A stretch of DNA of 59,698 bases. Origin: a virus. Lineage: Duplodnaviria > Caudoviricetes. The notes below the pieces were generated by a model, which worked only from the letters and a program-made list of their open reading frames with translations, had not been told where the DNA came from and did not search any database. The stretch spans positions 1 to 59,698 of IMG/VR virus record IMGVR_UViG_3300037054_000205, one strand, 5' to 3'. Shown in pieces: positions 12,895-37,298 of this stretch. How positions within the stretch are numbered: position 1 is the stretch's first letter; every line of letters starts with the position of its first letter. A program made the translations under genes and the position numbers.

Positions 12895-13425
12895 ATGATT
12901 TTTTATACCTATCTGTGGCTTCGTGACGACGGAACACCCTACTATGCGGGGAAGGGTTCTGGGAAGCGGGCTTTTGTACTGCACGGTCACCACTTAAAGC
13001 CGCCGAAGGTCCGAGAGAACATTTTGATTCAGGAGTGGCCTGACGAAGCGGGAGCCCTTGAAGGAGAAAAACTTCTGATTGCAATTTATGGCAGGAAGGA
13101 CATAGGGACTGGATGCCTGCGAAATCTAACGGACGGGGGAGAAAATCCCCCAAAGCGCAGTTTTCTTGGGTGCAAGCATTCTGACGAGAGCAAAGAACGT
13201 AATAGGCTCTCCCATTTGAATCCGTCCGCAGAAACCAGAGCGAAAATCTCGGCGGCGGGTATCGGAAGAATAGCTTCAGAAGAGACGCGAAAGAAAATGA
13301 GTGCGTCACAAAAGGGAAAAACGAAAGGGCGTCCGTGTACTCTTGATAGGGCGCTAAAAGCGAGTTTAGCATTGAAAGGTAGACCTTGGTCGGAATCTCG
13401 ACGCAAGGCTCAAAAGGTGAAATAA
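12895..13425 (+). CDS. GIY-YIG homing endonuclease with NUMOD3-type repeats
   Basis: FYTYLWLRDDGTPYYAGKG...NLTDGGE; paralog of 10293..10931. Confidence 0.88.
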   Translation: MIFYTYLWLRDDGTPYYAGKGSGKRAFVLHGHHLKPPKVRENILIQEWPDEAGALEGEKLLIAIYGRKDIGTGCLRNLTDGGENPPKRSFLGCKHSDESKERNRLSHLNPSAETRAKISAAGIGRIASEETRKKMSASQKGKTKGRPCTLDRALKASLALKGRPWSESRRKAQKVK

Positions 13426-16280: not shown

Positions 16281-18191
16281 GTGTTCGAAGTCGACGACGA
16301 CCTACTCAAAAAGTATAAAGCCTCCATCGACCTCTCCAACTTCCCTCGGGAGTTCGTGAGGCAATTCAATTTGACGCATCCTGATAGCCAAGAGTTATGG
16401 TACCGTGAACGGTTCAAGTGCCTGAAGTACCACGTCTATCTCAGCGGTTACGCCGAAGCCACTAAGGCGGGCGATGAAGACAAGCCCATCAATTACGTGC
16501 CGATTCTTGGGATGGACTTCCAACCAGACCCCCACAATATCTTGTTCAGCCGCTTTGTCCAAAAACGCCCGGGAGAAAACAAAGTATTCCTGGACCTGGA
16601 ACTTCTCGCCAAAAAGATGATGATACTCTGGCCGCGAGGATTGTTCAAAACCTCTGCGGTCATTGTGGACATCGTTCAGACCATTCTGAACTACCCCAAC
16701 ATTCGCATATGCTTCCTGACGGGCGGCGACCAACTCGCCAAGCGGCAATTGGAGCGCGTGAAGCGCGTGTTCGAGAAGCCTTCACCCCGATTCAAGTGGT
16801 TGTTTCCCGAATTCTGTTTGAAGGATGTGCGCAACCGGAAAGTCAAGAACGATGACAGTGAGGCTGCGTGGACATCTGAACTTTGCAAGATGGGAACGCA
16901 ACATGAGTTCACGGTCCCGTGTCGGACGAACCTGACGTTCGCCGAACCGACGTTCGCTATTTCAACCGCGAAGTCCGTTAAGGCCGGGTCGCACTACGAC
17001 ATCATCTACATCGACGACTTGGTGAACGAACAAAACTACCGCAGCATTCCCATGTTGGAGAAATGCTACGACGACTATATCGCCATATGCCCGTTGCTTG
17101 AACCCTCGGGCTATATCGTCATGACCGGAACGCGGTACTCGTTCGGCGACACGTACGAACGCATTCAGGAGTTGGCGCACGACGAAGATAAACGAGAAGG
17201 TCGCAGCATTTGGAGGTTTTCGATTCGGGATTGCTGGAGTCATGGTTGCCAGAATTGCGTCCATACCAGCGTCTATCACGACTTCGAAAAGAACATCATA
17301 GAGCCGCCATGTATTATGCCCGGATGCGCGTGCCCGGGATTCAAAGACCGTGGCGATAAAGGCGTGCTGTTTCCGCTGACTCGGTCAGTAGACGGCAGAC
17401 CTATTGGGCACACCGTAGAAATGTTGGAGGCAAAACGCAGAGAGTATGGTCAGGAGTTCTTCGCAAACCAATACGAGAACTGCCCCATCGCGGCGGGAAC
17501 GCAGACCTTCGACGAAAATATGATAGGGGCTCAGACGTTCCACAACTTGAATCAGATGCCGTCCGACCCGAGCGGGTTCACCTTCGCAGTCGGGGACCTC
17601 GCGTACGTGGGTCAACCTGACCGCGACTACTCGGTGATTTACATCTGCAGGGCAATCCAAGGTCGCATCTGGGTGTACGACTGTCTTTTTGGGAACTGGG
17701 ACTCGGGGCAGGTCGCCGACGTCACGGTTGACGAAGTACTGTTAAAGTTCCGTCCGAACATCGTCTATTATGAAAAGGTCAACGGCTGGGACGGGTTCGA
17801 TAAACTCATCGCGGCGGCGGCGGCCACGCGCGGGATGCCCAAGGTCCCGCTGCAGTGGGAAAAGGGCTCGCAGGCTAAGAACGCCAAGATGCGGCGTATC
17901 GGCGATATCAAAGGCTGGATTACGAGTCGGCGCCTTTGGATTTACGGAGGGATGCGCGGGTACGATAAACTGGTTGCGCAACTCACCCATTGGCCGAAAC
18001 ACGGACGCCACGACGACTTTGCAGACTGTATGGGCATGGTGGTGGCGGCGCCGACCGGAGTGCAACTCAGCGCACCCCCGCCCGCCGACGACTCGGGGAA
18101 CTGGCTGCGGAAACTGCATGACATGAACCCTACCGGGCCGGGCAGCGATGCATACCCAGACAATGGATGCGGAAGCGGTGTCACATGCTAG
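16281..18191 (+). CDS. terL: terminase large subunit
   Basis: WPRGLFKTS Walker A variant, GSHYDIIYIDD Walker B, GTRY, GDLAY...DYS, HDDFADC nuclease motifs. Confidence 0.92.
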   Translation: MFEVDDDLLKKYKASIDLSNFPREFVRQFNLTHPDSQELWYRERFKCLKYHVYLSGYAEATKAGDEDKPINYVPILGMDFQPDPHNILFSRFVQKRPGENKVFLDLELLAKKMMILWPRGLFKTSAVIVDIVQTILNYPNIRICFLTGGDQLAKRQLERVKRVFEKPSPRFKWLFPEFCLKDVRNRKVKNDDSEAAWTSELCKMGTQHEFTVPCRTNLTFAEPTFAISTAKSVKAGSHYDIIYIDDLVNEQNYRSIPMLEKCYDDYIAICPLLEPSGYIVMTGTRYSFGDTYERIQELAHDEDKREGRSIWRFSIRDCWSHGCQNCVHTSVYHDFEKNIIEPPCIMPGCACPGFKDRGDKGVLFPLTRSVDGRPIGHTVEMLEAKRREYGQEFFANQYENCPIAAGTQTFDENMIGAQTFHNLNQMPSDPSGFTFAVGDLAYVGQPDRDYSVIYICRAIQGRIWVYDCLFGNWDSGQVADVTVDEVLLKFRPNIVYYEKVNGWDGFDKLIAAAAATRGMPKVPLQWEKGSQAKNAKMRRIGDIKGWITSRRLWIYGGMRGYDKLVAQLTHWPKHGRHDDFADCMGMVVAAPTGVQLSAPPPADDSGNWLRKLHDMNPTGPGSDAYPDNGCGSGVTC

Positions 18192-18236: not shown

Positions 18237-18716
18237 GTGTCAAATATACGTGGAAGTCAGTGGAGCAAACTGGCCGAAACCCCTTTTCGGATTGAAAATA
18301 GCAGGAGAAAATACCGATGTTCTCACGGGCGAAGACAAGATGCTTGTAGAGAATGCGGCGGGCTCAAATTAGCCGTTCGGTGCATGTACTATTCCGCCCG
18401 AACTCGGGCGCGTCGGGACGGAATACCGTTTACCATCTTGCGAGCGGAGATTTGGGATTTGGTAGGCGACGGGGTTTGTCCTGTGTTGGGTATTCGCTAT
18501 GAATTTGCGACTCAAAAAGGACAAGGAGGGTGTGATAGTTCGCCATCCCTTGACCGATTTTACCCCGAGCGTGGGTATGTCGCTGGGAATTGTTTTGTAA
18601 TCTCCAGCTTAGCCAACAGAATCAAAAATAATGCCACTTCTCCGCAAGTGGCTCAAGTGGCAACTTGGATGAAACAGACGGAAGAACAGATGGAGATTAC
18701 TTATGGCCGAGATTAA
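18237..18716 (+). CDS. HNH-like homing endonuclease
   Basis: CPVLG...SPSLDR...GYVAGNCFVISSLANRIK. Confidence 0.8.
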   Translation: MSNIRGSQWSKLAETPFRIENSRRKYRCSHGRRQDACRECGGLKLAVRCMYYSARTRARRDGIPFTILRAEIWDLVGDGVCPVLGIRYEFATQKGQGGCDSSPSLDRFYPERGYVAGNCFVISSLANRIKNNATSPQVAQVATWMKQTEEQMEITYGRD

Positions 18717-20937
18717 CAAAAAAAATGTGAACGCTACGGAGCATTTCACAGATTCTGGCCAAATCCGCATCATCGAACTGCCTGGAGCAATCCCGTACGG
18801 CGAGACCGCGATGCCGATTACCGCCGCGCAGGTTGCTTTCGACGACCAGTTGCGTTCTGACGTATCCATGCTACAGGAAGCGAACCTGAATCGCGAGGAA
18901 TCCGAAAGTTTTATCGCTACCCGTGGCTTGATTGGACGCTGGAACCTCGCGGAACTGATGTTACGCGCTTGGGTAGAGCCCGTGAAGTGGAAAGGGAGCG
19001 AGCAATTTCGGTCTCACCTCGGGGTACCCCTTGTCGCGGAGCAATTTTATAGCATTCACAGTGTCGTCAACCAAACTTTATTTGGCGGCTACCAAATTTT
19101 CAAAGTGGATGCGACTTCAGGCACGCCGTTGGATTGCGCCGAAGCCCAGCAAGCCATCCTGAACGCGCAGTTGAAGACCTGCGGGTACAAAGGCGTCTCA
19201 GCCAAGACCGAATTCCGCGAAATCACCTACGACGGACTGTTCTACGGGTTCGGCGTGGCTCACTACGGCTGGCAGAAGACGAAACAGAACATCATCAAGA
19301 AGGTGGCGAAATTCCATCCGCAGACGACCGTCGTAAACGGGGTCGCGGTGACGGTTCCGGTCGCAGATGAAGACGATTACACAGAAGAGATTGTCGGCGT
19401 GCTGGAATTCAATCAGCCGAAAATTGAACATGTGCCGATTCGGCGCTATCGTTATGCTCCTGACCTTCGTCGCGGCGACTCGCGCACCGCTGAATGGAGC
19501 GGGCGCCTACTTTATGTGACGTCCTATGACCTGGATGGGCTCCGAAACACGGACGGGTGGAAGATTCCTACCCGCGCCCAACTGGTAGCCCTCACAACTC
19601 CGCAAATGCAGAACAACGCGACCACGAACCCGCTCGAAACGATGGGTTCGAACACAGGACAACCGATTTTCCAGCAAACCACAACTCCGCAGAAGGCGTT
19701 GCCCGAAAATTACACCGAACGTACCGCGCATGACCCGTTGATGCGGAAATTCGAGCTATTCGACTACTGGACGAGCCTGCGGCATGTGATTATTCTCAAT
19801 AGAGAGTACGTGCTGCTGAATGAAACGCACAAATTCGGTCGTCCACCGTTTTTGAGTTTCTGTTTCCGCGCCGCGCCCGATTCCGCGCATGGATATGGCA
19901 TTGCTTTCTGGCTTACTGACTTTCAACGCATATGCAATGGCGTTATCAACTCGTTTTTGGACGATATGAACCTGAACATGATGGGAACCTACACCGCGCC
20001 CGCTGGCACCAACAACAGCGCTCAGGCTCAGTGGATATTCCCGGGGAAAATCTTCAAATCCGACACCCCGAACGGTAAAATCGAAGCTTTGACACGCAAC
20101 GGCATCGACGCGAAGGAACCTTTGGCGGTTATCGCGCAGATGAAGGCGTGGGCGGCGTCAATCACTGGCGCAGGCCCGGGTACCCTTGGGTCCAACCCCG
20201 GCGCGGCTGGGGATATGCGCACTCCTGCGGGAGTTGAAGCTTTGTCGGGCGGCGAATCGGTCAAGTTGCAAGATTTGGTGGATGTAATCTCCGAACAGGT
20301 ATTCGTTCCGTTCTTGGAGTTCTGTATTGACCAGAATCAGAAGTTGAAGCCGTCGCAACTGCGCGCGATGCTGTCGCAAGCTCTTGGTGAGGCATTCAAA
20401 GCCACGCCGCTGGACATTCTCAACGGCACCTACAAAGTTGACATCTCCGCAGCGACGAAACTCGCGGCGCGCGAAGCGTTGAATAAATACATGGGAATTC
20501 TGCAGACATTCTTGAGTTCCCCGGGCACCGTCGAGAACCTCGCTACGCAGGCGATGAAGTTGGACTACAACGCGATGTTCTCGGCCCTATATGACTCCTT
20601 CGGCGTCCCGTACAAGGAAAAGATTATCGTGCCGATGAACGACGACGACAAACAACGGCTGGCGGCCATGAAGAACCAGCAACAGCCGCAGGATAAGATG
20701 TCGTTGATTAAGGCTCAGGGCGAATCGAAGAAAGACATCGACAACAACCAAGCCGAGAATCGCATGCTGATTGAGACGGGCAAACACACACTCAATACAC
20801 ACGGCGCGGACCATCAAGCGACCATCGACCAAGCGCAAGCGAAGGCGGAAGCCGCCACGCCCCAAGCACAGGGTCTCGACCGGGCGGCGAAGGGTTCATT
20901 CGCCAATATGGATAAAGCCGCATTTCCAGGCAAGTAA
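18703..20937 (+). CDS. portal protein
   Basis: 744 aa, lies between terL and scaffold/capsid; DGLFYGFGV and helical C-terminus. Confidence 0.8.
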   Translation: MAEINKKNVNATEHFTDSGQIRIIELPGAIPYGETAMPITAAQVAFDDQLRSDVSMLQEANLNREESESFIATRGLIGRWNLAELMLRAWVEPVKWKGSEQFRSHLGVPLVAEQFYSIHSVVNQTLFGGYQIFKVDATSGTPLDCAEAQQAILNAQLKTCGYKGVSAKTEFREITYDGLFYGFGVAHYGWQKTKQNIIKKVAKFHPQTTVVNGVAVTVPVADEDDYTEEIVGVLEFNQPKIEHVPIRRYRYAPDLRRGDSRTAEWSGRLLYVTSYDLDGLRNTDGWKIPTRAQLVALTTPQMQNNATTNPLETMGSNTGQPIFQQTTTPQKALPENYTERTAHDPLMRKFELFDYWTSLRHVIILNREYVLLNETHKFGRPPFLSFCFRAAPDSAHGYGIAFWLTDFQRICNGVINSFLDDMNLNMMGTYTAPAGTNNSAQAQWIFPGKIFKSDTPNGKIEALTRNGIDAKEPLAVIAQMKAWAASITGAGPGTLGSNPGAAGDMRTPAGVEALSGGESVKLQDLVDVISEQVFVPFLEFCIDQNQKLKPSQLRAMLSQALGEAFKATPLDILNGTYKVDISAATKLAAREALNKYMGILQTFLSSPGTVENLATQAMKLDYNAMFSALYDSFGVPYKEKIIVPMNDDDKQRLAAMKNQQQPQDKMSLIKAQGESKKDIDNNQAENRMLIETGKHTLNTHGADHQATIDQAQAKAEAATPQAQGLDRAAKGSFANMDKAAFPGK

Positions 20938-22756: not shown

Positions 22757-23752
22757 TTGATTCTACCTCCCGGCGTAGTCAGCACTACCTTAGCGGCTTT
22801 TCCGCAGATTGCTTACGACCGCACCGCCATTCTCGAATGGCAGTTCAATACACCTGTCTTGGAAGAGCTTTGCGACTTCCGTCCGCTGCCTCGGCGTTCG
22901 GGTCGGACGCTTCAGTTCTACGGGCAGACCCCGTTCGCTGCTGCGACCTACGACCTGTCCGAAGGTATTCCGGGTCCGTCACTCCAACTGAACCAAGTGT
23001 TCAGCGATGCATTCGCCGAGGAATACGGCGACTGGATTGGCGTGAGTAACGTAGCCCAGCAAATGTTCCTCGCGGACATTACGCTGGACGCCACCCGCAA
23101 CCTGTCTTACCGTGGCGCTCTCACGAGCAACTTGATTGCGATTAACGGATTCGAAGCTGCCTCAGTCGCGCAGCCGTCCGCCCGCATCGACCTGCTCGAC
23201 AACGAGTTTATGCTTTCCAACACCATTCGGAAGTGCGAATCCCAGTTGATGGGCAACGCTGTTCCGGGTCGTGATGGCGGGCTCTACACGGCTGCGATGC
23301 ATCCTTACGTTGTGTACGACTTCATGTCGGACAACAGCGCCGGGTCTGCCGTCGACGTGATGAAACGCAGTGAAGCTGGCTCGGCTGTCCTGAAGTCGGA
23401 CATGACGCGCGGCTACACCGTGCTGGAGTGGGCTGGCGTTCGAATCATACGCACCCAGACCACGCCGACCTACAGCAATTATCCTTCGGCGGGCAAGACT
23501 GGTTACGCCTCGTACGTGGTTGGCCGAGAAGCCATGATGGCTTCCGAGTTACTCGGCACCCGCGTCCCCCGCAACCCCAGTTTCAAAGTGAACGTGAAGA
23601 CCTTCGGCGACAACGACATCGACTTGTCGAACCCGATGCTTCAGACTCGCGCGATTGTTTCTTACGATTGGTTCCTTGGGGTCGTTGCGAGGCCAAACAC
23701 CAATAATACACCAGGATTCAGGCGTGTTCGTGGTGAAGTTTCCGCCGTGTAA
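22757..23752 (+). CDS. major capsid protein (N4-gp56-like)
   Basis: PLPRRSGRTLQF, LSEGIPG, EYGDWIGVS, MHPYVVYD, GVRIIRT; TTG start with AAGGAG. Confidence 0.88.
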   Translation: MILPPGVVSTTLAAFPQIAYDRTAILEWQFNTPVLEELCDFRPLPRRSGRTLQFYGQTPFAAATYDLSEGIPGPSLQLNQVFSDAFAEEYGDWIGVSNVAQQMFLADITLDATRNLSYRGALTSNLIAINGFEAASVAQPSARIDLLDNEFMLSNTIRKCESQLMGNAVPGRDGGLYTAAMHPYVVYDFMSDNSAGSAVDVMKRSEAGSAVLKSDMTRGYTVLEWAGVRIIRTQTTPTYSNYPSAGKTGYASYVVGREAMMASELLGTRVPRNPSFKVNVKTFGDNDIDLSNPMLQTRAIVSYDWFLGVVARPNTNNTPGFRRVRGEVSAV

Positions 23753-24528: not shown

Positions 24529-25155
24529 ATGGTCGTATACACGATAGTCAACAGTGAGACCTTAAAGATTTACATCGGACAGCACAATCGAGAGGACGAC
24601 CTAGGAAAGTATTTTTCAAAGAAATTTTACGATGCTCAACGTAAATCGGGAAAACGTTCGCACATCTACGCAGCGATGCGAAAATACTCCCGAGACAAGT
24701 GGAGCATTCACCCATTGATTTCAGGAATCGCGGATAAAAAAGAACTTGACGAAACCGAACAGCTTTTGATTTACGCACTGAACGCGCAGCATCCCGATGT
24801 AGGCTACAACATTTGTGATGGCGGCGAAGGTTTCACAGGACCCCAGTCGCCTGAAGCCAAAGCCAAAATCTCAGCGGCGCTAACAGGTCGTCCCGTGTCC
24901 GCAGAGACTCGTGCCAAAATCGGCGCATCCCAGCCTCGGTCAGCCGCTCAGTTGGCAGCCATTGACCGTACAGGAAAACCTCACACCCCTGAAACTATCG
25001 CAAAAATGATGGGCAACCAAAACTGTCTGGGTCGGGTAAACTCTGAAGAGACTTTGGTAAAGATGCGGGAGTCGGCGAAGATGCGGGGTATCTCACCAGA
25101 AACAAAGAAGAAGATGCAGGATGCTCGGTTTTTGAAGACCGTAGCGTGGGGATAG
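24529..25155 (+). CDS. GIY-YIG homing endonuclease with NUMOD3-type repeats
   Basis: VVYTIVN...KIYIGQ, GYNICDGGEG, SAETRAKI repeats. Confidence 0.88.
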   Translation: MVVYTIVNSETLKIYIGQHNREDDLGKYFSKKFYDAQRKSGKRSHIYAAMRKYSRDKWSIHPLISGIADKKELDETEQLLIYALNAQHPDVGYNICDGGEGFTGPQSPEAKAKISAALTGRPVSAETRAKIGASQPRSAAQLAAIDRTGKPHTPETIAKMMGNQNCLGRVNSEETLVKMRESAKMRGISPETKKKMQDARFLKTVAWG

Positions 25156-26750: not shown

Positions 26751-27233
26751 TTGCGGCTGGATTTCTTGGCCGAAAGGAAAGACAAGTTGATGGCTCTAGG
26801 ACACCATAAGCGGGATGTGACAGGGAAGTCACTTTCTCGCACCCACGAAACTCGGGCGTATCGTCTGAAATACCCAGGACGACGACGACCTTGGGATGCG
26901 ACATATCGGCAATCCGAAGCAGGGCACATCGCCCATCAAGAGTACAACGACTCAGAAAAAGGTCGTCTAAATTCGGCGGACGGGAACCTGAAAAGAAAAT
27001 ACGGCAAAGGGCTAGACGACAAAATAGCCCAACATCAGACACAGAATGGACTATGCGGGGTTTGTGGTAATCCGTTATCTACCAAGATGAATGAATGCCA
27101 TTGGGACCATCGTCACGAAACTGGGGAGTTGCGCGAGATTTTACATCCGCGTTGTAATATTGCAGTTGGTTTTATGGAGAGTGAACTACAGCAGCCTGTT
27201 TTAGAGTATCTCAAGAGGCATCGCCATGATTAA
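26751..27233 (+). CDS. endonuclease VII-like (HNH) protein; start may be ATG 26790
   Basis: LKRKYG...QNGLCGVCG...WDHRHETGELREILHPRCN. Confidence 0.82.
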   Translation: MRLDFLAERKDKLMALGHHKRDVTGKSLSRTHETRAYRLKYPGRRRPWDATYRQSEAGHIAHQEYNDSEKGRLNSADGNLKRKYGKGLDDKIAQHQTQNGLCGVCGNPLSTKMNECHWDHRHETGELREILHPRCNIAVGFMESELQQPVLEYLKRHRHD

Positions 27234-27840
27234 TCTGGACCCGTCAAAAGAGAGAATTGGATTTCTGGTGAGACATGGTGAGTTGACCAATCCAGGATGC
27301 TGGGACGGCTGGGGAGACCTGACTCTGAGTGAAGAAGGTCGCCAGCAAGCCGAGCGCGCCGCGCACTGGCTTTCATTCGAGAAAATCGGACGGGCTGTGT
27401 GTTCCGATCTTCCCCGCACTATCGAGACCGCCGAGTACCTCATGAATACGGGTGTAGTGGCCTGTCCGCATCTGGCTTGTGACCCTAACCTGCGACCACG
27501 AAAAGTCGGAGATTTTACGGGCAAGGAAAAGACCCCAGCGCTCCTCGCTGAATTTCAAAAGTATCTGGATGACCCGTCCCTGCAAATTCCAGACGGCGAG
27601 AGCCAAGACCAACTCACGACGCGCGTGCAGGTGATTTATCAGTATCTGTGTGCTCCGTACGAAGCGCTTCCCACGGCCTGTTTCGTTCACAACTCCGTCC
27701 TCAAAGCCTTGATGGGACTGCAGGGGGAGAAGGAAGCCGTCACGCCGGGTGGAATAATTGGGGTGTACATGGACGAAAAAGGTGAGGTATCATTCCAAAT
27801 TGTGCTGGGCGAAGCTAACGCAGAAAAGGGAGTAAGTTAA
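27226..27840 (+). CDS. histidine phosphatase (phosphoglycerate mutase family)
   Basis: LVRHGE, LSEEGRQQA, SDLPRTIETA, GES, VHN. Confidence 0.9.
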   Translation: MINLDPSKERIGFLVRHGELTNPGCWDGWGDLTLSEEGRQQAERAAHWLSFEKIGRAVCSDLPRTIETAEYLMNTGVVACPHLACDPNLRPRKVGDFTGKEKTPALLAEFQKYLDDPSLQIPDGESQDQLTTRVQVIYQYLCAPYEALPTACFVHNSVLKALMGLQGEKEAVTPGGIIGVYMDEKGEVSFQIVLGEANAEKGVS

Positions 27841-28437: not shown

Positions 28438-31400
28438 ATGGCCAACGGCGACCCAACAACGACTCCGACCGTGACTCCCCCCGCTGCCCCGGCAGCGCCT
28501 GACGCCACCCCTGCGCCTACTGACGAAGGGCTGCTGCATTCCTTCGCTACTGGATGGGGAGTTGACCCCGAGGCTGTCAAATGGGCGGCTAAGACTATTT
28601 GGAATGACCCCATCGGGTCGGCCAAAGCCATAGGCGGCGCGCAGGTAGACGAACTCAAACATGCATTTACGCACCCGATAGAAGCCGCGAAGGAAGTAGG
28701 GGAGGGGGTAGTGTCCGCCGTCACCCCGAACCCTGATGCGGTAAAGACGGCGCAAGCCCACCTACACGCACCGGGGCTTGTCAATAAATTGGTGGGCGGC
28801 GCGGAGTATTTGACCAGCGGCGTACCGTTGTTCGGTGCGGCTGGCGTCAAGGCCGAGGAGCAGGGCGCGAAGGGAAATATCCCCGGCATGCTTGGCACCA
28901 CGGCGGCTGTCGCCTCGCAAGTTTTCGCTGGCGGAAAAGCTGGCGAAGAATCGCCCAAACTTTCGAAGGAAACGAAGCTGGGGTCTGTTTCCCCCGAGGC
29001 TGGAAAAACTCCCGGCGAACTTGAACCGTTGAACCGTGCGAATGCGAAAACACTACAAGACCTGGGGTACTCCAACCAAACTATCACGAACTTGAATGCC
29101 ACCGAAGTTGACCATATTCTCAAGAACAACATTCCGGCACCCCCACGCGTCGACCTGACAAGCGAGGGCGCGAAAGAAGTCATGCCCGCCCCGCATATGC
29201 ATCCTCCCGCCGAAGATGTGGCGGCTACTGCTGCGGCTGCGGCGGAACCCGCAGACCTTCAGATGGGCGAATCTCGCAAAATAGATGTCCCGAAAGGAAG
29301 ACAGGGCTCGGACGCGCAGGTTATCCAAAAAGGGGGATGGCTCCTGCCTAATGGACAAAACTACGTGCATCCTGACCTTCACATGACTCATGGCGAATCT
29401 GCACTGGACGCGGGTTTTAGTGGACTTGGAGTGGTGAATCCATCCACCGGATTGGATATGCCCGATGCACTAACTGCGCGCATCCAGGCGTTGCGGAGTG
29501 GGGCCATTCGTTCTACTCTCGACCGAAAAGGAACGACCACCTTAGAGTTGTTTGGCATCACTGAAGAAAGTAAGCCGCGCTTGTTAGACGCGCTGGCAGT
29601 CGCACCGCCTCATAAGCCTGTATTTATTGCACATGCTGGAGGTAGAGGGGCCGAATTTCAAAACTCCAACTCAACCCAACAGTTTAGCAATCCCGCAGAG
29701 GCAATTGATTGGGTTGACCGCCAAGCAACGGTCAGTTCCATTCAGACAGGCGAGTCCAAGGGACCGTTAGCGAAACTCGGTATTGATACCACCACGCTGA
29801 AACCACCAAAGGGACAGGGACGGCGAGCCTTTGACCGCCCTGAGGGCGAGCCCGCAACAGGCGCGGAAGAAACTCCGACCACTGGGGCTACTTCAGACAA
29901 GGGCATCTTAGGCAGACTAGGCATTGACACCACTAAACTCCCGCCCGCGCCTGGGCAGGGCAGTCAAGCGTTTGACCGTCCGCAAGGAGGACACGCGGGC
30001 GGCGGCGTTGCGTCCCTCGAAGAATTGAATCGTCCTGGCCGCTTTGTTTCCGTTGACCGCGCGGGCACGACTAGTGACCAAGGAAAAACTCCAGACTTTA
30101 ATTTGCGTCCAGGCTCGGTCGGGTATCAAGTCAAGCCTGACGGCACGCACCAACTGATTGATGGGCAGGAAACTCCTACGCATAAAGCCGCCATTGAGAA
30201 TTACAAGCAGAACGTGTACCCGAGTCCTGCGCCCGAGCATCTCAACACCCTCGCCAAGCGCGGACAACTCGAAGGGCAGAGGTATAATCTCGGAGATATT
30301 GATGGCGCCACGTATCGCGGCGGCCTCGACCAATCACCGCGCCCGGGGTCCGAGGACGCGACGGACAAACTTCAGATGGGTGAGCGTCAATCACCGCTCA
30401 AGGAACCGTATACGGTTGAAGTGACGGACCAAGATGGAACCAAGCACACCGAGACGATTGAGGGATTCTCCTCGAAAAACGCGCTGGCGGCGGCGCAAAA
30501 ACAATTCCCGAACGGGTACAACTGGAGCCTCGCGTCAGGAAAGTCAGATGGACCCAGGACCCTGTCGACGGAATACACTCCCGGAACCAAGAAGCCCCTA
30601 TCCATGCGGGCTTCGAATACTGGCAGAACGGCGCGAGAGCGACGTGGGCATGAAGTCGGGCATGTAATGGAAGCGCAAGCGGTGGGGATAAAGCAACTTG
30701 GGATAGCGAGAAGTTCGCATCCAGATAATCGAGGAGATTATGACACCTTCGCCATCTTCTCAGGCGAAGGGGTATACGTTCCTGGGACGAGGGTCATCAA
30801 GCCGGAAAGGCGGATGGACGTCGTACGCCTTCTGGTGGGGGGCATCGCGAGAGATGAAGGCGCTGGATTGCATCGCGCTTCCAACCATAATTTCAGCATT
30901 AATCTTGAGGGTTCTGACGGTCATCAAGCCTACAGCATTTTGACGGCGGCAGACTACACGCATGAGAACGCAATGGACCGCATGAACCAACTCATAGACA
31001 TAGCTGCGGACCATCAGTCCAGACCTCACGTTGCCAGTGTCATCGAAGAGAATCTCGATACCCGCGAAGAGGGGCTATCTCGGCATTACGACTACAGTCC
31101 CGAGCGGTTGGATAATATGTGGGCTGAATCCCAGAGGAGAGCACAAAATGCAACCGAAAAGCGTGACGCTGCAGGAAATGGCGCAGGACTTGCTGAAGGA
31201 AGCCCAGAAAGCCTCGCCCGAGGAGAAAGCGGAATTTCGAAAGCAATTGGACCAGTATCTGAAGGACCAGATAGCGGCCCTGAACCCGGAGCAAAAGGCG
31301 AACTTTCTCAAACTCCAGGCGCAGAGAAAGAAGACCTCACCGCAGGAGCCAGCAAAGTAGCCCCCACTACAGGTGAGGAAGTGATTGCCAAACTAGAGAA

Positions 31401-34400
31401 ACCCCCTATCGGCTTCCAAGACGCTAAACCAATTCCGTATTCCTCCGACGCAGAGTTTACCAATCGAACCGCCCCTTCCATGATTCTGCCTGATGGCAGA
31501 ATTATCAACGCGCGGCTGGCTCATACTGAAATTGCGGCGGCTGCTGGTTTTAAGGATACTGGGTCATCGCTGGATAAAACGTACGTTTCTGGCGTAACCG
31601 CTTTTCAACGGGCAACCGGAGTGGTGCGAGTTATCTACCCCGAGCACGGCGGAAATATAGGCATTGAAATACACCAACGACCCTCTAATGACCAGTTAGG
31701 CATCATTGGAAAGAATCTAAAGAATGCGACTGCAGCGGGCAAGGGTGATGGTTCCCTGACGTGGGATTTGGCAGACGCTAACGGCAAATTCACATCGGGT
31801 CACGGGTCTATCGGGGATTTTCGGCGCGCGGTAGATACCGCTTATCTAGAGCAAGGTCTATCCAATCGCGTGAACTCCGCGCCCGTCACAAAGACGCCGA
31901 AACTACAAGCGGGCGAGATTAAAGGTGACGCTGTCGACAAGCCCGCTGCGACGTACCATGAAGCTGCCGCGACCGAAGGAAACCCGTGGGTGCGCCGTTC
32001 CGCTGACCCCGCCGACGACGCCGCCCCGACAAACAAGGGTCGGCAGGTAATGGTACAGTTCAGTTCTGACCTCATCAACAAGGACCTTCCGTCTGGCACA
32101 GGCGGGGCATATTATGACAAGCTGTACGGCGGCGCGCGCCCCGGCTACGCGCGCATGCAGGATACCTGGGAGATTCCGCAATGGATGGGATTTGCTTCCC
32201 ATGCACTGCCAAAAGCAGATGTCTATTTTGTCCGCGACATGGCGCAAGCGAAAAAGTTCTTGAACGAGGCGGGTTACGACCGCGCGCTCTTCAGCGCGCT
32301 GGACGTAAACACCCCGCTGATTAAGGAATTGGCGAAAGGTTACAAGGGCGCGGTGGACGTCGGCGGGTATCAGAAGCCTGGGACGTTCCTGGACAGCCCG
32401 AACGTCACGTACCATGCGTCTATCCAGGACATGATGAACCACCCCTACTATAAAGGGCAGGGCCTGGAATATAAGAACGGCACCGACTATCGGCACTTCG
32501 AAGGTTCTGATGTCATCCCTCGCCTGACCATGTCCGATGGCTGCTTGCACAAGTGCGCGTTCTGCGTGGTGGAAAAGAAGATTGACGTTACCCCGGAGAG
32601 CGTGGTCGACCAACAGGCTGAATCCATTGCAAAGCTCGGCGCGAAGCTGGTTTACCTGAATGACAAGACCTTCGGGCAAGCGTCAAACTATCAACATCTG
32701 TCCGACGTGTACGCGAAGATGAAAGAAGCGAATCCCGCGTTCCACGGCTTCGTCGTGCAGACCACTGCCGCCCAAATGGGCAAGATTCCTTCTGACTGGT
32801 TGCAGAAGTCGGGCATCAAGTATGTGGAACTCGGCATTGAAAGTTACAATGACCCCATCCTAAAGGAAATGCACAAGCCCGCGAACCAGAAACTGATTGA
32901 CGCGGCCACGCAGAAACTACGCGAGAACGGTATCGCGCTCATTCCGAACATCCTGGTCGGCTTGCCCGGCGAGACCGCGCAAACATACGCCAACACCCTG
33001 AAGTTCCTGCAGGATAACAAAGACATCATCTCGCACGCGAACATCTACAACCTCGCGCTGTATGAGAATTCAGAGTTGGGCAAGAAACTGACGACCGCCA
33101 ACCCCGACGACTTCAACGAGAACGTATTGGAGAAGTCATTCCACTCCGACCCCGCAGTGCATAAGCAGTTCGCGGGTGACCTGTACGGCGCTGCGCAGGA
33201 CATGTTAGACCAACCGCCCCCAAGCGCGACGAAGACGAATGAACCCGCTACGCTGCAGATGGGCTTTGCAAAACAGAAAGCTAAGGCTAAAGACCAAGCC
33301 CCGAAAATTACGGACATGACTGCGGAGGATTTGGCGTTCGACAAGAGGCACGCCGAGTTTGCTGCGCCCGATGCGGCTGCGGAAGAACCAGTGACGCCGA
33401 CTCGCGAAACAATCGTCGCCGCTAACGCCGACATTAAAGAGCGGCAGCGGATTCAAGACCATTTAGCAAAGGTGGATAAAAGAAATCAACCCGCCGAAGC
33501 TGCGGCTCCTGAAGTCGCGCGCACTGCCACGTCCCAAGAAGCCATTGCCAACATCGTCAAAAACAACGAGCATGACGATTACAAGGTTACACCCCCAGGC
33601 AAGGCCGTAGCGCGAGACGCTTATGGGTATTTGCTGGCTGATGGGAGTCTGGTCGAGAACGCCGACGATACCCGCGAGTACACCCATTCCCAACTTGCCG
33701 ACTTGTTGGACTGGGATGATATGAGGAACGCAAACGCCATCCGAACTAATGGTCCCGATAACATTGAGGTTCTGCATGACGCCCCGACCGAACAACAGCG
33801 CGGGGAAATAGCCCGATTCGTCAAAGAGGGCGGGAAAGACAAACTTACTTGGGACTTCCATAAAATCACAGACTTCGATGGCTACGAGAATTTTCTGCGC
33901 GGCTCAGATTCTCTATATGGCGGGGAAGACAAACCACCTCTCGAAAGCGGCGAAGGTAGCCTCGGGGATTTCCTGCGCGCGGCTGATAAGTTCTACAAGA
34001 AGCCCGAGCCAGTTTCTGGGGGAGCCTCGATAGGCGACCGTCTCCAAACTGGATTTGCGAAGACCAAGAAGCCTGCCGAGGCTGCGGCTCCTGAAGCGGC
34101 ACTGAAGTTCACGCACAAAACTTTCGGAGTCGATGACTCCATTGCCCGCGTGTCTGCGCTCGATGCCAAGGGAGAGGATGTCGGACACGTCACTTACGGG
34201 TTGCCTAAACCCGCGAAGCGCACGGGGGATTTCAGTGCCACGATAGCGATGGCGGCGGTTGACACTCCAGGTCAAGGTCTGGGCCAGAAACTTTATCTGC
34301 AAGCGGCGGATGCGGCGAAGACCAAAGGCGCGCGGTATTTGGTCTCCGACGTGGCGCACGGGGTGGACCCGTCCGCTGTTCGTGTTTGGGATGCGCTCGT

Positions 34401-36768
34401 GGCAAAAGGATATCCCGTAGAAAAGCTGGGCGCGAAGAACTATCGTATGGACCTTTCGAAATTTCAAACGCCATCGAATGCGGCTCCTGTCCAGAGTATA
34501 TATGAGAAAAAGGGAGCCCAAGAATTAGCAGACCATATCGGCGGAAGAGTGGTCGGGTCCGTCGCCACAAAGGGCGTCTCAACCCATGATTTAGATTTGG
34601 CGGTTGACACCTATGACCAACCTAAGATTGAAGCGGCGATGAAAGCCCGAGGATTTGAGCCGATAGGTAGTTCAGTAGTGTCTCCTGCCGAAGCAAAAAC
34701 ATCTGGTAAGACTTTTGGCGGCGATTCTGCCGACTGGAATCGAGCACACCATTTTGAAAATAACACGACGCAATCAAAAGCCTCGGAACCTCGGCGGAGG
34801 GTGGATATTTGGAGCAAAGAACCCGCTGAAAGCGATGTCATCGACCACATCAAGTCGGGCGGGCAGTTCGGTGTCCTGACCGCCGAGAACCCGCAGAACA
34901 GAACGCTGTCGGCGAAAGAGAACGCTACTCGCAACGAGGCCCTGCGCCAGCAACTGGAAGCGCGCGGACACGACCCAATCCAGTTGACTGGGCACTCCGA
35001 TGCGGTTGGCCCGGCGACGGAGAATCCCTTCTTTGTGAAAGACCTTCCTGCGGCTGAGACGGCGGCGCTGGGGCGCGAGCACGGACAACAGTCCGTCCTG
35101 ACGCATCAAGGTCTGCACGACCTGAACAAGGATGTGGTGAATCCGCTCGACCCGTCGCAAGGAATCATGACGGGTCCTGATGCCGAGAAGCAGAAGTATT
35201 TCTCCAAGCATGATGGACAGGCGTTCTCTGCACCAGTTAATTGGGATAAGACGGTTGCGCCGGAAGGAAAAGGGGAGTCTCTCTCTGGGGTTCCTGTTGT
35301 GAGCACGCGGGTGCCGCACGGGACCCTGAATAAAGTAAAGTTCCAGCGGCATGAAGATACAACCCGCATGTCCGACATGGAAGCAGCGACGGCGGCGCCT
35401 GGATATCTGCAAAAGATGATGGACAAGGTACACGATATTCCCGGGTTTGTCGCGCCGCAGGGCGGGACCATTCAGGAGCAAACCGAAGCCTTTATTCAGC
35501 ACGGGCTGGACAACATAATGTTCGTTCACTCTAAGATGACACCTGAAAAAATCGCACTGAACAAGCAGTGGTACCCGGTTGGAGCGCATGGACGCGGAAT
35601 CATTCTCGCGCATCAAAATGGGATTACGCCCGCGCAAGCCTACGGCATCACGTCGGTCGAGTCGCCGCTAACGGACTGGGACCAGAACACATCCTTGGCC
35701 GAGCGTACCGCCAGCATCTATCAGCAACAGCAAAACACGCGCTTCACGCCGGAAATGGCAAAAGCCGCCGACGCGATTCTTACCATACCCGCTATGGCAG
35801 GATTCAAAAAATCGTTTAGTTTGCTTCGCGGGAAGACTCTCGCCGAACTACCGGATATCGAGGATAAGGCATACTGGCTACGCATCTACGACGAAGCCCA
35901 CAACCCCCGCGAGTATATGCAATGGAACGCGGACGGCACCCAGGCGGGCATCGCTAGGAGCATGGACGGCACGCCAAGGGCAGTAGGCTGGAGTTTCTTC
36001 ACTCATATTGAGAAGGCAATCAGGATTGCCCAGGACGGGTCTCCAGAAAATATCAGTCGACAACTAGGGCTGAATCATAAGGTGCGGAACTTCTACAACA
36101 ACCAAGCCGACCCAGACAACCCGCGATACCTGACCATCGACACCCATGCGGGCGCCGTAGCGCAGTTGCGCCCGTTGTCGGGAGGGCATCCTGACATTTT
36201 CCACATCTTCGGGAATCCATCCAACAACGCGTTTGGTCTCTCTGGCACCTATCCGCTTTATGACGAGATGTACAGGCGGGCAGCGAAAAAACTTGACGAA
36301 CCTATCCCGAGCAGGGTACAATCGTCCGTATGGGCGGAGATTCGAGAAGTGTTCAACGACGATTTTAAGACGCCAGAGAATCTGGCCGCAGTAGACGCGA
36401 TTTGGAAGGAGTCGACCGATGGCAAAATCACAGCCGACGAAGCCCGAAACAGAATCTGGGACTTCGCAACTCGATGGAACAGAGAAGCTGCTGAAAAAGG
36501 GCGGGCTTCCGATAACCAGGGAAAACTATTTGCTCCTGACGTTTCTGGGACACCCGCCAGCGGAACCCCTGAGCGAGGAAATGGAGCAGGAGTTGCCCCA
36601 CCACCTGCAGCGGAAGAGGTAGGCGATACCTCGTTTGACTTCGGTGCGAACGTCAAGCCGGAAGCGGGCAGCTTCGGGCGGGCGCCGAAAAAGAGCAAGG
36701 CGAAAACGCAACTGAACGCCGTAGACCTCCTGAAGGCTTTGAGCAACCTGAAGAAACCCGCACGCTAG
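28438..36768 (+). CDS. giant multidomain (polyvalent-type) protein, probably virion-injected: zincin protease, radical SAM, GNAT, nucleotidyltransferase, DUF3293-like, glycosylase-like domains and three copies of an unknown domain
   Basis: 2776-aa ORF; HEVGH, CLHKCAFC, GQGLGQKLY, GS..DLD, LTAENP, KVRNFYNN..TIDTHA motifs. Confidence 0.85.
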   Translation: MANGDPTTTPTVTPPAAPAAPDATPAPTDEGLLHSFATGWGVDPEAVKWAAKTIWNDPIGSAKAIGGAQVDELKHAFTHPIEAAKEVGEGVVSAVTPNPDAVKTAQAHLHAPGLVNKLVGGAEYLTSGVPLFGAAGVKAEEQGAKGNIPGMLGTTAAVASQVFAGGKAGEESPKLSKETKLGSVSPEAGKTPGELEPLNRANAKTLQDLGYSNQTITNLNATEVDHILKNNIPAPPRVDLTSEGAKEVMPAPHMHPPAEDVAATAAAAAEPADLQMGESRKIDVPKGRQGSDAQVIQKGGWLLPNGQNYVHPDLHMTHGESALDAGFSGLGVVNPSTGLDMPDALTARIQALRSGAIRSTLDRKGTTTLELFGITEESKPRLLDALAVAPPHKPVFIAHAGGRGAEFQNSNSTQQFSNPAEAIDWVDRQATVSSIQTGESKGPLAKLGIDTTTLKPPKGQGRRAFDRPEGEPATGAEETPTTGATSDKGILGRLGIDTTKLPPAPGQGSQAFDRPQGGHAGGGVASLEELNRPGRFVSVDRAGTTSDQGKTPDFNLRPGSVGYQVKPDGTHQLIDGQETPTHKAAIENYKQNVYPSPAPEHLNTLAKRGQLEGQRYNLGDIDGATYRGGLDQSPRPGSEDATDKLQMGERQSPLKEPYTVEVTDQDGTKHTETIEGFSSKNALAAAQKQFPNGYNWSLASGKSDGPRTLSTEYTPGTKKPLSMRASNTGRTARERRGHEVGHVMEAQAVGIKQLGIARSSHPDNRGDYDTFAIFSGEGVYVPGTRVIKPERRMDVVRLLVGGIARDEGAGLHRASNHNFSINLEGSDGHQAYSILTAADYTHENAMDRMNQLIDIAADHQSRPHVASVIEENLDTREEGLSRHYDYSPERLDNMWAESQRRAQNATEKRDAAGNGAGLAEGSPESLARGESGISKAIGPVSEGPDSGPEPGAKGELSQTPGAEKEDLTAGASKVAPTTGEEVIAKLEKPPIGFQDAKPIPYSSDAEFTNRTAPSMILPDGRIINARLAHTEIAAAAGFKDTGSSLDKTYVSGVTAFQRATGVVRVIYPEHGGNIGIEIHQRPSNDQLGIIGKNLKNATAAGKGDGSLTWDLADANGKFTSGHGSIGDFRRAVDTAYLEQGLSNRVNSAPVTKTPKLQAGEIKGDAVDKPAATYHEAAATEGNPWVRRSADPADDAAPTNKGRQVMVQFSSDLINKDLPSGTGGAYYDKLYGGARPGYARMQDTWEIPQWMGFASHALPKADVYFVRDMAQAKKFLNEAGYDRALFSALDVNTPLIKELAKGYKGAVDVGGYQKPGTFLDSPNVTYHASIQDMMNHPYYKGQGLEYKNGTDYRHFEGSDVIPRLTMSDGCLHKCAFCVVEKKIDVTPESVVDQQAESIAKLGAKLVYLNDKTFGQASNYQHLSDVYAKMKEANPAFHGFVVQTTAAQMGKIPSDWLQKSGIKYVELGIESYNDPILKEMHKPANQKLIDAATQKLRENGIALIPNILVGLPGETAQTYANTLKFLQDNKDIISHANIYNLALYENSELGKKLTTANPDDFNENVLEKSFHSDPAVHKQFAGDLYGAAQDMLDQPPPSATKTNEPATLQMGFAKQKAKAKDQAPKITDMTAEDLAFDKRHAEFAAPDAAAEEPVTPTRETIVAANADIKERQRIQDHLAKVDKRNQPAEAAAPEVARTATSQEAIANIVKNNEHDDYKVTPPGKAVARDAYGYLLADGSLVENADDTREYTHSQLADLLDWDDMRNANAIRTNGPDNIEVLHDAPTEQQRGEIARFVKEGGKDKLTWDFHKITDFDGYENFLRGSDSLYGGEDKPPLESGEGSLGDFLRAADKFYKKPEPVSGGASIGDRLQTGFAKTKKPAEAAAPEAALKFTHKTFGVDDSIARVSALDAKGEDVGHVTYGLPKPAKRTGDFSATIAMAAVDTPGQGLGQKLYLQAADAAKTKGARYLVSDVAHGVDPSAVRVWDALVAKGYPVEKLGAKNYRMDLSKFQTPSNAAPVQSIYEKKGAQELADHIGGRVVGSVATKGVSTHDLDLAVDTYDQPKIEAAMKARGFEPIGSSVVSPAEAKTSGKTFGGDSADWNRAHHFENNTTQSKASEPRRRVDIWSKEPAESDVIDHIKSGGQFGVLTAENPQNRTLSAKENATRNEALRQQLEARGHDPIQLTGHSDAVGPATENPFFVKDLPAAETAALGREHGQQSVLTHQGLHDLNKDVVNPLDPSQGIMTGPDAEKQKYFSKHDGQAFSAPVNWDKTVAPEGKGESLSGVPVVSTRVPHGTLNKVKFQRHEDTTRMSDMEAATAAPGYLQKMMDKVHDIPGFVAPQGGTIQEQTEAFIQHGLDNIMFVHSKMTPEKIALNKQWYPVGAHGRGIILAHQNGITPAQAYGITSVESPLTDWDQNTSLAERTASIYQQQQNTRFTPEMAKAADAILTIPAMAGFKKSFSLLRGKTLAELPDIEDKAYWLRIYDEAHNPREYMQWNADGTQAGIARSMDGTPRAVGWSFFTHIEKAIRIAQDGSPENISRQLGLNHKVRNFYNNQADPDNPRYLTIDTHAGAVAQLRPLSGGHPDIFHIFGNPSNNAFGLSGTYPLYDEMYRRAAKKLDEPIPSRVQSSVWAEIREVFNDDFKTPENLAAVDAIWKESTDGKITADEARNRIWDFATRWNREAAEKGRASDNQGKLFAPDVSGTPASGTPERGNGAGVAPPPAAEEVGDTSFDFGANVKPEAGSFGRAPKKSKAKTQLNAVDLLKALSNLKKPAR
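31148..31360 (+). CDS. nested +1-frame gene inside the giant ORF (70 aa, helical)
   Basis: AGGAG at 31135-31139, 8 nt before ATG; MQPKSVTLQEMAQDLLKEAQKASPEEKAEFRKQLDQYL... Confidence 0.6.
   Translation: MQPKSVTLQEMAQDLLKEAQKASPEEKAEFRKQLDQYLKDQIAALNPEQKANFLKLQAQRKKTSPQEPAK
36419..36622 (+). CDS. nested +1-frame gene inside the giant ORF (67 aa)
   Basis: AAGGAG at 36406-36411, 7 nt before ATG; protein-like GLPITRENYLLLTFLGHPP...EQELP. Confidence 0.65.
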   Translation: MAKSQPTKPETESGTSQLDGTEKLLKKGGLPITRENYLLLTFLGHPPAEPLSEEMEQELPHHLQRKR

Positions 36769-36779
36769 GAGCATGTTAC

Positions 36780-37298
36780 ATGTCACGAGCGAAAAAGGTC
36801 CCGACAGATGAAGACCGGAAACGCGCCCAAGACAAGCGCATCCAGCGAAAATTCGGCATCACCCTCGCCGACCGCGATAGGCGCATTTACGAACAAAACA
36901 ACCTCTGCAAAATCTGCGGAGGAGCCCTCGATGCCTACGGACCCCCCAACATCGACCATTTCCATTTCTATGTGAATGTGGTGCGGGAAAAAGACCCCAG
37001 TATGTTAGCGGTGGGTCTGAAATGGTGCGCAATTTCCTATAACGAGATACGAATACCAGTTTTTACTCGCTATTCCCGCACCAAAGCTGGTGCCATCGAA
37101 AGCGTCAAGATGGCGACTATGCCATGGGCCGTGCGCGGCATTCTCTGCTTCAAGTGCAATCGCGGCCTGGGATACATCGAGCGGTTCTTTGGCGCCTCCC
37201 ACCACCCTGAAAATATCATCCCCGTCATTGATTATTTACGTGCCCGACTCCCGAAAACCCTTGACAAGTCCTACGATTTCGACTATCCTGATGTTTGA
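36780..37298 (+). CDS. endonuclease VII-like protein
   Basis: RKFGIT...QNNLCKICG...IDHFH...VRGILCFKCNRGLG. Confidence 0.85.
   Translation: MSRAKKVPTDEDRKRAQDKRIQRKFGITLADRDRRIYEQNNLCKICGGALDAYGPPNIDHFHFYVNVVREKDPSMLAVGLKWCAISYNEIRIPVFTRYSRTKAGAIESVKMATMPWAVRGILCFKCNRGLGYIERFFGASHHPENIIPVIDYLRARLPKTLDKSYDFDYPDV
37261..37289 (+). promoter_or_regulatory. sigma70-type promoter
   Basis: TTGACA-17bp-TATCCT upstream of the GGAGG RBS of 37312. Confidence 0.7.

Follow-up and report, generated by a model that had tools for sequence, protein, structure and literature searches.

A giant phage polyvalent protein with a recurring linker motif and an FtsH-like zincin: a candidate self-processing polyprotein

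The virus record IMGVR_UViG_3300037054_000205 (Duplodnaviria; Caudoviricetes) was analyzed over its whole length of 59,698 bases, which is referred to as the window and has a completeness rating of approximately 60%. It contains a giant gene whose product, P0001, is a variant of the phage polyvalent proteins that carries a recurring linker motif and an FtsH-like zincin (P-numbers denote the giant proteins compared, and L-numbers denote related loci). P0001 is proposed to be a self-processing polyprotein that is cut at the linker motif by its own zincin, with a probability of about one half. The initial annotation had named cleavage by the internal zincin as one possible role of the linker. This is the best-supported reading, based on the disordered linkers, the cassette borders, the conserved catalytic residues and the placement of the linker in the zincin cleft, although it is still a prediction.

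According to the proposed mechanism, P0001 would consist of independently folding cassettes strung on disordered linkers, in the order N-terminal helical domain, two unassigned domains, zincin, radical SAM, probable GNAT and nucleotidyltransferase, DUF3293 and a DUF7178 module. Eight linkers bear the pattern h-Q/x-x-G-[E/F], which would be the recognition site of the zincin at residues 650-925. The linker would bind as an extended strand along the zincin edge strand 767-775, with the third motif residue beside the zinc site. The cut would most likely fall between Q and the following M, T or A, and the cassettes would be freed either inside the head or once the protein had been delivered together with the DNA. 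We infer the packaging, injection and cleavage of P0001, as well as the scissile bond.

Recurring linker motif and its position between cassettes

Seven copies of the motif had been listed in the initial annotation, and all of them were found where it placed them (Table 1). An eighth copy, LARGE, was recovered by a looser scan. The strict pattern [LI]Q.G[EF] occurs six times in P0001, compared with a mean of 0.11 in shuffled sequences, and none of 20000 shuffles contained at least six. A position-specific scoring matrix (PSSM) built from the eight copies gave 9 matches in P0001 versus 0.46 expected. In the six-frame translation of the window, the strict pattern is found only twice outside the giant open reading frame (ORF), and by our reading neither copy falls within an evident gene. 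One of them, at 46558, coincides with the TTG of an ORF that, by our reading, more likely starts at an ATG further downstream, and the other is on the minus strand.

The seven copies differ in their Leu, Gln, Gly and Glu codons. This variation in synonymous codons indicates that selection acts on the peptide and not on the DNA. It also speaks against the idea of a recombination joint for swapping cassettes, which was not borne out at the DNA level. The DNA shared between copies is limited to microhomology of at most approximately 11 nt, in one pair. A DNA recombination joint was also ruled out elsewhere, because codons vary among the FMAEK, FMPK and QFQ[AP] copies in L027, L017 and L008. Internal translation starts at the motif ATG were ruled out as well, since Met is present in only three of the seven copies and no Shine-Dalgarno-like sequence was seen upstream by eye. 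The third role suggested for the linker, a packaging tag, does not explain the seven internal copies.

Two AlphaFold models calculated with alignments (residues 1-660 and 640-1160) cover five of the seven sites together with LARGE. The folded parts in these models are residues 30-164, 200-240, 343-432, 527-610 and 649-914. The claim that the motif falls between domains held for the five modelled sites, which are all outside folded domains in 10-residue blocks with a mean predicted local distance difference test score (pLDDT) of 30-60. Residues with a pLDDT below 50 make up 36-44% of both models, so this location is only moderately specific and is supportive but not decisive.

Relatives of P0001 were collected in several ways. 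A profile search with residues 1-1200 returned 156 proteins at E <=0.001, the best 150 of which are listed, and a word-based search with the whole of P0001 returned 43 large relatives. In addition, 75 related loci were found with an alignment of the radical SAM cassette, for which a single-sequence query had found none. Homology endpoints on P0001 (n = 558) lie within 25 residues of one of the seven sites in 37% of cases versus 12% for random sites (0 of 2000 random sets). Most endpoints stem from a small number of cassettes, so they are not independent of one another. The segments 277-434, 505-600, the zincin (632/645-940/985), 978-1147 and radical SAM (1145/1161-1597) vary in order and position among the giants. 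Judged from these comparisons, P0001 is a mosaic of swappable cassettes. The radical SAM cassette occupies varied positions in the giants of relatives and is a free-standing gene of 375-549 residues in 22 of the 75 loci.

FtsH-like zincin and its predicted contact with the linker

The catalytic motif HEVGH lies at residues 738-742 (30649-30663). The assignment to an FtsH/M41-like zincin was confirmed by the fold in the AlphaFold model and by Foldseek and VIA. Foldseek with the model of residues 649-914 gave FtsH protease domains as the best PDB matches (E 5e-3). Re-alignment by VIA to residues 410-603 of 3kds_E gave a Z score of 14.0 and a root-mean-square deviation (rmsd) of 2.8 over 151 aligned residues. 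The top 21 entries in the VIA ranking are all FtsH, YME1, AFG3L2 or FtsHi, and the next entry has a Z score of 7.8. In an alignment of 50 zincin sequences, H738 is conserved in 41 of 42, E739 in 41 of 43 and H742 in 40 of 42. The downstream acidic residues D806 (40/44), E807 (43/44) and D827 (43/47) are all conserved in the same alignment and are the candidates for the third zinc ligand. Judged from the fold match and the conserved catalytic residues, the zincin looks like a working protease.

The cassette is approximately 280 residues long and consists of the zincin fold and a small beta-alpha N-subdomain, with no AAA+ module. Pfam Peptidase_M41 did not match residues 650-966 even at E <=10. 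The zincin thus has the FtsH fold but stands outside the FtsH family proper. Relatives share a conserved hydrophobic-x-x-x-E signature on both zincin flanks. Their N flank reads [DN]-L-x-x-x-E-[RLK]-Q-[ST]-P-L-K-E-P-Y (L in 19 of 34, E in 26 of 38), and their C flank reads V-A-[GR]-G-E-G (V/L in 36 of 47, G in 27 of 47, E in 31 of 47). The LQMGE and LARGE copies of P0001 fall precisely at these conserved flanks. As a separate observation, the beta-alpha subdomain that precedes the zincin fold (residues 650-705, 30385-30580; model residues 11-66) aligns with T7 Gp2 (4lk0_M; Z 5.5, rmsd 1.6, 48 of 51 residues) and with a P74-26 portal-vertex chain (Z 4.9). These Z scores are too low to indicate more than a common small fold.

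A complex was predicted between the zincin (residues 645-929, with its alignment) and a 38-residue linker (residues 1588-1625). The complex scored 0.67 compared with 0.02 for the best of three controls; this score is a model confidence and may lean on solved substrate-bound structures of the FtsH type. Of 80 solved complexes, 58 attained the score mark, and so did 2 of 110 mismatched pairs. At least 67% of contacts are shared between the runs, with a partner pLDDT of at least 51. The confidently placed part of the linker is peptide residues 17-27, A1604-K1614 (ATLQMGFAKQK), and the predicted contacts on the zincin include H738, E739, H742, strand 763-777 and D827. In the predicted complex, L1606 and Q1607 pair with F774, I773 and F771 of the edge strand, while M1608 adjoins H742, L799, D827 and Q830. 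Extended-strand pairing along an edge strand is the usual way in which zincins hold their substrates. The predicted pose would point to a cut beside the third motif residue.

Linker motifs in related giant proteins

The exact motif is private to P0001, whereas the habit of carrying a lineage-specific linker motif is kept among homologs, so conservation of the motif stood only in the second sense. The comparison in close relatives is limited to junction 1 in P0054 and junctions 1 and 2 in P0032. P0054, which is 73-75% identical in the N-terminal domain, has DLPNGF followed by KAV near junction 1. P0032, which is 52% identical in the cassette of residues 279-434, has ISPRLE followed by SQKIEIPK at junction 1 and VSSQIE followed by TK at junction 2, and ISPR[LI]E occurs in it three times. 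When shorter proteins were searched with residues 1595-2300 for close relatives, one weak match was obtained, and the metagenome scan yielded a single contig of 1.6 kb, which stops immediately before the first junction. IQGG in relatives was ruled out as the same motif, since its counterpart in the alignment is IKGD, within the radical SAM cassette, and not LQAGE.

Other lineages carry their own recurring linker motifs, which border radical SAM and ART-PolyVal cassettes. FQAP occurs in seven exact copies in P0021, or nine with FAAP (p 1e-14, uncorrected for the words tested), and [AG]QF[QS]P occurs in 9-10 copies in P0024 and P0025. A QF/YQ[AP] motif is found in P0014, P0016, P0017 and P0018, an FMPK motif in P0011, P0012, P0015 and L016-L018, and FMA[ED]K in seven copies in L027. 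Further motifs are AQF[AT]P in P0178, PENP[KA]L in P0080 and P0096, ARESR in P0037 and AAEQRV in P0043. The P0016-type motif lies approximately 15-20 residues further upstream of the radical SAM core than that of P0001. This difference in offset shows that the lineage motifs are not inherited copies of one sequence. Motif sites are enriched near homology endpoints in all seven QF/FM-type proteins (P0021, P0024, P0025, L027, L017, P0016 and P0014), with observed values of 0.28-0.58 versus 0.09-0.15 for the null, and the null reached the observed value in 0-42 of 1000 trials. The enrichment in P0032 is weak (47 of 1000).

The P0001-type zincin is present in P0001-P0010, in P0032 and in most of the listed matches to the profile of residues 1-1200, often as a tandem pair, and it is not present in the QF/FM lineages. 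Most QF/FM lineages have a different conserved aapHExxH block at residues 548-700. Counts of exact 4-mers, compared with shuffled sequences, were too coarse to detect such motifs. Clustering of 7-mers missed the five-residue motif of P0001 itself, so a blank from this method is not evidence of absence. As a side observation, [KT]PENP[KA]L[GS] in P0080, P0096, P0134, P0062, P0082 and P0118 resembles the core of 2A skipping peptides, which in eukaryotes is ExNPG. This likeness is probably a coincidence.

Weighing of the explanations

Together with the limits given above for the pLDDT values, the homology endpoints and the docking score, several observations count against cleavage of P0001 by its own zincin. 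The last 900 residues, with at least four domains, contain no strict copy of the motif and only F-type look-alikes. A motif with either E or F at one position leaves the scissile bond ambiguous, and FtsH-type proteases are not known to cut in a sequence-specific way. No other protein of at least 400 residues has three or more copies of [LI][QT].G[EFA], and among the other 154 distinct proteins of at least 900 residues, the number of PSSM matches never exceeds three. In P0004, which is the closest relative in the radical SAM cassette (83% identity over that part), LKSEK takes the place of LQAGE, and an 11-residue gap takes that of LQMGF. P0043 and P0037 show no motif enrichment near endpoints. 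A clear recurring linker motif was detected, with insensitive methods, in only two of the 11 giants with the same zincin (P0001 and P0032, among P0001-P0010 and P0032). Furthermore, P0011, P0016, P0017 and P0022 bear a motif without any HExxH, and the incompleteness of the record means that a protease acting in trans may lie outside it.

The last two points are also those on which cleavage in trans would build. The motif would then be cut by a head-maturation protease encoded in the missing approximately 40% of the genome, by the trypsin-like protease of the phage itself (Trypsin_2) or by a host protease, and the zincin would be an anti-host effector, a role that Iyer et al. 2017 (PMC5512222, main text) allow for some zincins. 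A prohead protease that cuts head proteins of a giant phage at AXE provides a precedent in the available text of PMC10052503. However, neither the window nor any of four related records, of which three are rated 100% complete, contained a match to Peptidase_S78 or S49; the control of an S77 search was silent, so that search carries no information. The Trypsin_2 gene, although present in the window, was found in only two of five records and is absent from three records whose giants bear motifs. Its product starts with what we read as an apparent secretion signal and should therefore not meet cytoplasmic proheads. A secreted trypsin-like protease is thus unlikely as the processing enzyme because of this signal and its patchy occurrence. 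The docking prediction also favors the internal zincin, and cleavage in trans as a whole is judged improbable.

Nearly the same low probability is given to a short binding motif that is never cut. It would serve as a pseudo-substrate that parks the zincin, or as a tether to the capsid interior, the portal or a chaperone, and the protein would be delivered whole. Selection at the peptide level in disordered linkers agrees with this explanation, the phage encodes a GroEL-like chaperonin, and predicted binding is no proof of catalysis. The virion RNA polymerase of N4, which bears a zincin and is packaged unprocessed according to the main text of PMC5512222, also speaks for it and against self-processing. 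On the other hand, copies lie at nearly every cassette border and not at a single docking place. Lineage-specific motifs between domains are the pattern of cut sites in viral polyproteins, the catalytic residues of the zincin are conserved, and the peptide is predicted across the HExxH site itself.

It is very unlikely that the motif has no function and is a leftover of the duplication of a domain with its linker or of joints from cassette swapping. Two cassettes that precede the motif are indeed paralogs (residues 972-1155 and 1611-1868; BLASTP E 5.7e-5 over 153 columns), the shuffling of cassettes between lineages is evident, and the closest radical SAM relative lacks the motif. Nevertheless, paralogous cassettes precede just two of the eight copies, and in both cases the paralog is followed by a spacer of differing length and unrelated sequence and then by the motif. 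The persistence of the five motif residues after unrelated spacers means that duplication does not account for the recurrence. The codon differences and the small microhomology exclude recent gene conversion, the shuffles never reach the observed count, and lineages have each arrived at a motif of their own in comparable locations, with a varying offset to the radical SAM cassette. A three-fold paralogy that includes residues 279-434 was unsupported (BLASTP E 1.1).

Self-processing of P0001 by its zincin can be extended to a wider hypothesis, in which the internal zincin of each lineage co-evolves with a private cut-site code in the linkers and the cassettes between copies are freed as effectors. 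This extension is tentative, with odds short of even. It is possible, at a similarly guarded level, that in P0001 an FtsH-like zincin, having lost its ATPase and become sequence-specific, reads the code LQxG[E/F].

Relation to known systems

Polyvalent proteins were defined by Iyer et al. 2017, and processing by their zincins was proposed in the main text of that study (PMC5512222). P0001 agrees with this class, as both are giant phage polypeptides that combine unrelated enzymes with an HExxH zincin. The combination of functionally unrelated domains in one phage-encoded polypeptide is what the polyvalent definition asks for. The polyvalent assignment made in the initial annotation is upheld by relatives that share P0001 cassettes and carry ART-PolyVal, LPD22 and LPD38. 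No Pfam family specific to polyvalent proteins matches P0001 itself; such families are borne by relatives that share the DUF7178 or radical SAM cassettes. The main text of PMC5512222 makes no mention of a linker, radical SAM, DUF3293 or FtsH, and the P0001 zincin differs in having an FtsH/M41-like fold, although the supplementary files of that study may bear on this. The literature search likewise turned up no account of a cleavage or linker motif for polyvalent proteins, with the same reservation for the supplementary data of Iyer 2017. P1 DdrB is a giant, virion-delivered, zincin-bearing protein that is proteolytically processed, and unlike P0001, neither DdrB nor the N4 virion RNA polymerase is described with a recurring linker motif in the main text of PMC5512222.

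In SPN3US, head and ejection proteins are cut at AXE by a separate prohead protease (gp245), as given in the available text of PMC10052503. The likeness is a short recurring motif at which head-packed, delivered proteins are cleaved, in some cases more than once per protein. The difference is that the SPN3US protease acts in trans and mostly removes N-terminal propeptides, whereas the sites in P0001 part whole enzyme cassettes and the candidate protease is internal.

FtsH/M41 proteases (3kds, 2ce7, 6az0, 6nyy) are the best structural match of the P0001 zincin. FtsH carries a GG-x-A-x-D-E stretch, and both this stretch and HExxH are present in P0001. Unlike FtsH, the P0001 zincin has no AAA+ ATPase module, shares 12-15% identity and sits in a polyprotein. 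The arrangement also recalls picornavirus 3C and potyvirus NIa, in which a protease inside a long translation product acts at lineage-specific motifs between the mature products. P0001 differs from these RNA-virus polyproteins in that it comes from a DNA phage, carries a metalloprotease that is not chymotrypsin-like and contains effector cassettes in place of replication proteins, and its cleavage is only predicted.

Polyvalent proteins are believed to belong to the earliest-acting phage proteins in the infected cell. Whether and where they are cut has been a matter of conjecture since 2017, and the motif, the protease cassette and the docking mode make it testable. If the lineage motifs are cut sites, they would offer a general way to divide giant metagenomic phage proteins, of which there are thousands, into functional units. 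The movement of radical SAM, histidine phosphatase and ADP-ribosyltransferase cassettes between free genes and fusions would then also be explained. The zincin would then be an FtsH-fold protease that acts without an ATPase and with sequence specificity. A cut-site code would further allow plug-and-play swapping of anti-host weapons and would be a DNA-phage counterpart of RNA-virus polyproteins.

Domain architecture of P0001

Pfam recognizes only three pieces of P0001, namely radical SAM (residues 1365-1524), DUF3293 (2147-2220) and DUF7178 (2523-2637). All assigned features are collected in Table 1.

Table 1. Features of the giant gene and of the trypsin-like protease gene in the window
Feature	Position	Strand	Basis
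Trypsin-like serine protease (Trypsin_2)	7345-8094	+	Pfam E 9.2e-8
Polyvalent polyprotein candidate P0001	28438..36768	+	One open frame, 2776 residues
N-terminal helical domain (residues 30-164)	28525..28929	+	AlphaFold helices at residues 32-164
Small three-helix module (residues 200-240)	29035..29157	+	pLDDT 96-97
Linker motif 1 LQMGE (residues 274-278)	29257..29271	+	pLDDT block 37
Cassette of residues 279-434, no assigned function	29272..29739	+	52% identical cassette in P0032
Linker motif 2 IQTGE (residues 435-439)	29740..29754	+	pLDDT block 30
Small conserved domain beginning PQGGHAGGGVAS (residues 515-610)	29980..30267	+	pLDDT 93-98
Linker motif 3 LQMGE (residues 645-649), N-terminal edge of zincin cassette	30370..30384	+	pLDDT block 37 or 60 (two models)
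Zincin cassette, FtsH/M41-like protease fold (residues 650-925)	30385..31212	+	AlphaFold pLDDT >90; VIA Z 14.0
Extra copy LARGE (residues 926-930, then S), C-terminal edge of zincin fold	31213..31227	+	Looser scan; pLDDT block 45
Degenerate copy LTAGA (residues 967-971)	31336..31350	+	pLDDT block 35
Cassette of residues 972-1155, no assigned fold	31351..31902	+	Paralog of residues 1611-1868
Linker motif LQAGE (residues 1156-1160)	31903..31917	+	pLDDT block 37
Radical SAM cassette (residues 1161-1605)	31918..33252	+	Pfam; CxxxCxxC
Linker motif LQMGF (residues 1606-1610), copy used in docking	33253..33267	+	Within the 11-residue stretch that P0004 lacks
Cassette of residues 1611-1868	33268..34041	+	Paralog of residues 972-1155
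Linker motif LQTGF (residues 1869-1873)	34042..34056	+	Sequence
Probable GNAT acetyltransferase (residues 1874-2004)	34057..34449	+	Weak matches
F-type look-alike DLSKFQTP (residues 2005-2012)	34450..34473	+	Bin with 15 homology endpoints
Plausible minimal nucleotidyltransferase (residues ~2020-2125)	34495..34812	+	G-S...DLD; Atlas leads
DUF3293 (residues 2147-2220)	34876..35097	+	Pfam E 1e-12
C-terminal module with DUF7178 (residues ~2286-2752), common to ART-PolyVal/LPD-bearing giants	35293..36693	+	Pfam, homology
Tail motif SFDFGAN, 45 residues before the end	36631..36651	+	Sequence

The N-terminal domain (residues ~8-185) is always in the first approximately 290 residues of relatives, among the matches listed, and is a candidate virion anchor. 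It contains two glycine-rich hydrophobic stretches, GLVNKLVGGAEYLTSGVPLFGAAGV and IPGMLGTTAAVASQVFAGG, at residues ~105-164 (28750-28930). By their composition, these look like membrane-inserting helices, comparable with those of ejection proteins that form an envelope channel. Foldseek with the model of residues 1-660 against BFVD gave only meaningless matches (TM <=0.09). The PQGGHAGGGVAS domain recurs at 40-74% identity in over 40 further phage proteins, and it belongs to no Pfam family. It is preceded by a two-copy repeat, L-x-[KR]-LGIDTT-x-L...GQG...AFDRP-[EQ]-G (29767-30267, residues 444-610 including the domain). An Atlas search with residues 972-1155 gave no usable match.

The radical SAM domain predicted in the initial annotation was recovered by Pfam (PF04055, E 1e-11, 45.8 bits versus a cut-off of 29.5), and CxxxCxxC was read in the sequence. 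The three cysteines, C209, C213 and C216 of the cassette, are invariant across 29 sequences. Free-standing radical SAM genes (L051-L075 and others) encode approximately 375-550 residues that are 31-46% identical, and the cassette family seems to be phage-specific.

The DUF3293-like unit was likewise recognized by Pfam. The GNAT acetyltransferase is weakly supported by a Pfam match below the cut-off (E 0.034), Atlas scores of 0.75-0.79 and the alignment of residues 1905-2017 to P0002, which bears precomputed GNAT families. For the minimal nucleotidyltransferase, the pattern G-S...D-L-D and Atlas scores of 0.81-0.83 to NTP_transf_2 clusters are the sole basis. A PDB sequence search with the part that contains these two units found nothing significant. 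Glycosylase-like units, which had also been suggested, were not recovered, since DUF7178 is the only match of the C-terminal part, and a PDB sequence search with that part gave nothing significant. The tail motif [ST]F[ND]FG[AS]N, which follows acidic residues, is present in 9 of 275 proteins examined, including P0058, P0061, P0134 and P0157, mostly 20-45 residues from the C-terminus. It could be a C-terminal targeting or docking signal.

Genomic setting

Upstream of the giant ORF are genes for the terminase (16281-18191), an SU10-type portal (18703-20937) and the major head protein (22757-23752), and downstream of it are replication and recombination genes. In Flavobacterium phage elemoE, a 3694-residue DUF3293 protein is annotated as a "structural protein", and the giant gene here follows head genes. 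Both observations bear only indirectly on the proposed delivery of P0001 into the host together with the DNA. Megablast of the giant gene against GenBank phages gave no match, and tblastn against the same phages gave only pieces with 28-39% identity.

A GroEL-like chaperonin gene, which is uncommon among phages, lies at 8702-10303 on the plus strand (phrog_5725, E 4e-120). Its product might assist the folding of the 2776-residue protein. A histidine phosphatase (His_Phos_1, E 3e-24) is encoded by its own gene directly upstream of the giant ORF (27226-27840, plus strand). The same family is a fused cassette within the giants P0014, P0016, P0017 and P0022, which shows that cassettes travel between free genes and fusions. 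The window also contains five homing-endonuclease-like genes (10293-10931, 12895-13425, 24529-25155, 26751-27233 and 36780-37298). Three of them have NUMOD3, one of these together with a sub-threshold GIY-YIG match (E 0.0025), and two are of the endonuclease VII type. Two homing-endonuclease-like genes flank the giant-gene region, one on each side.

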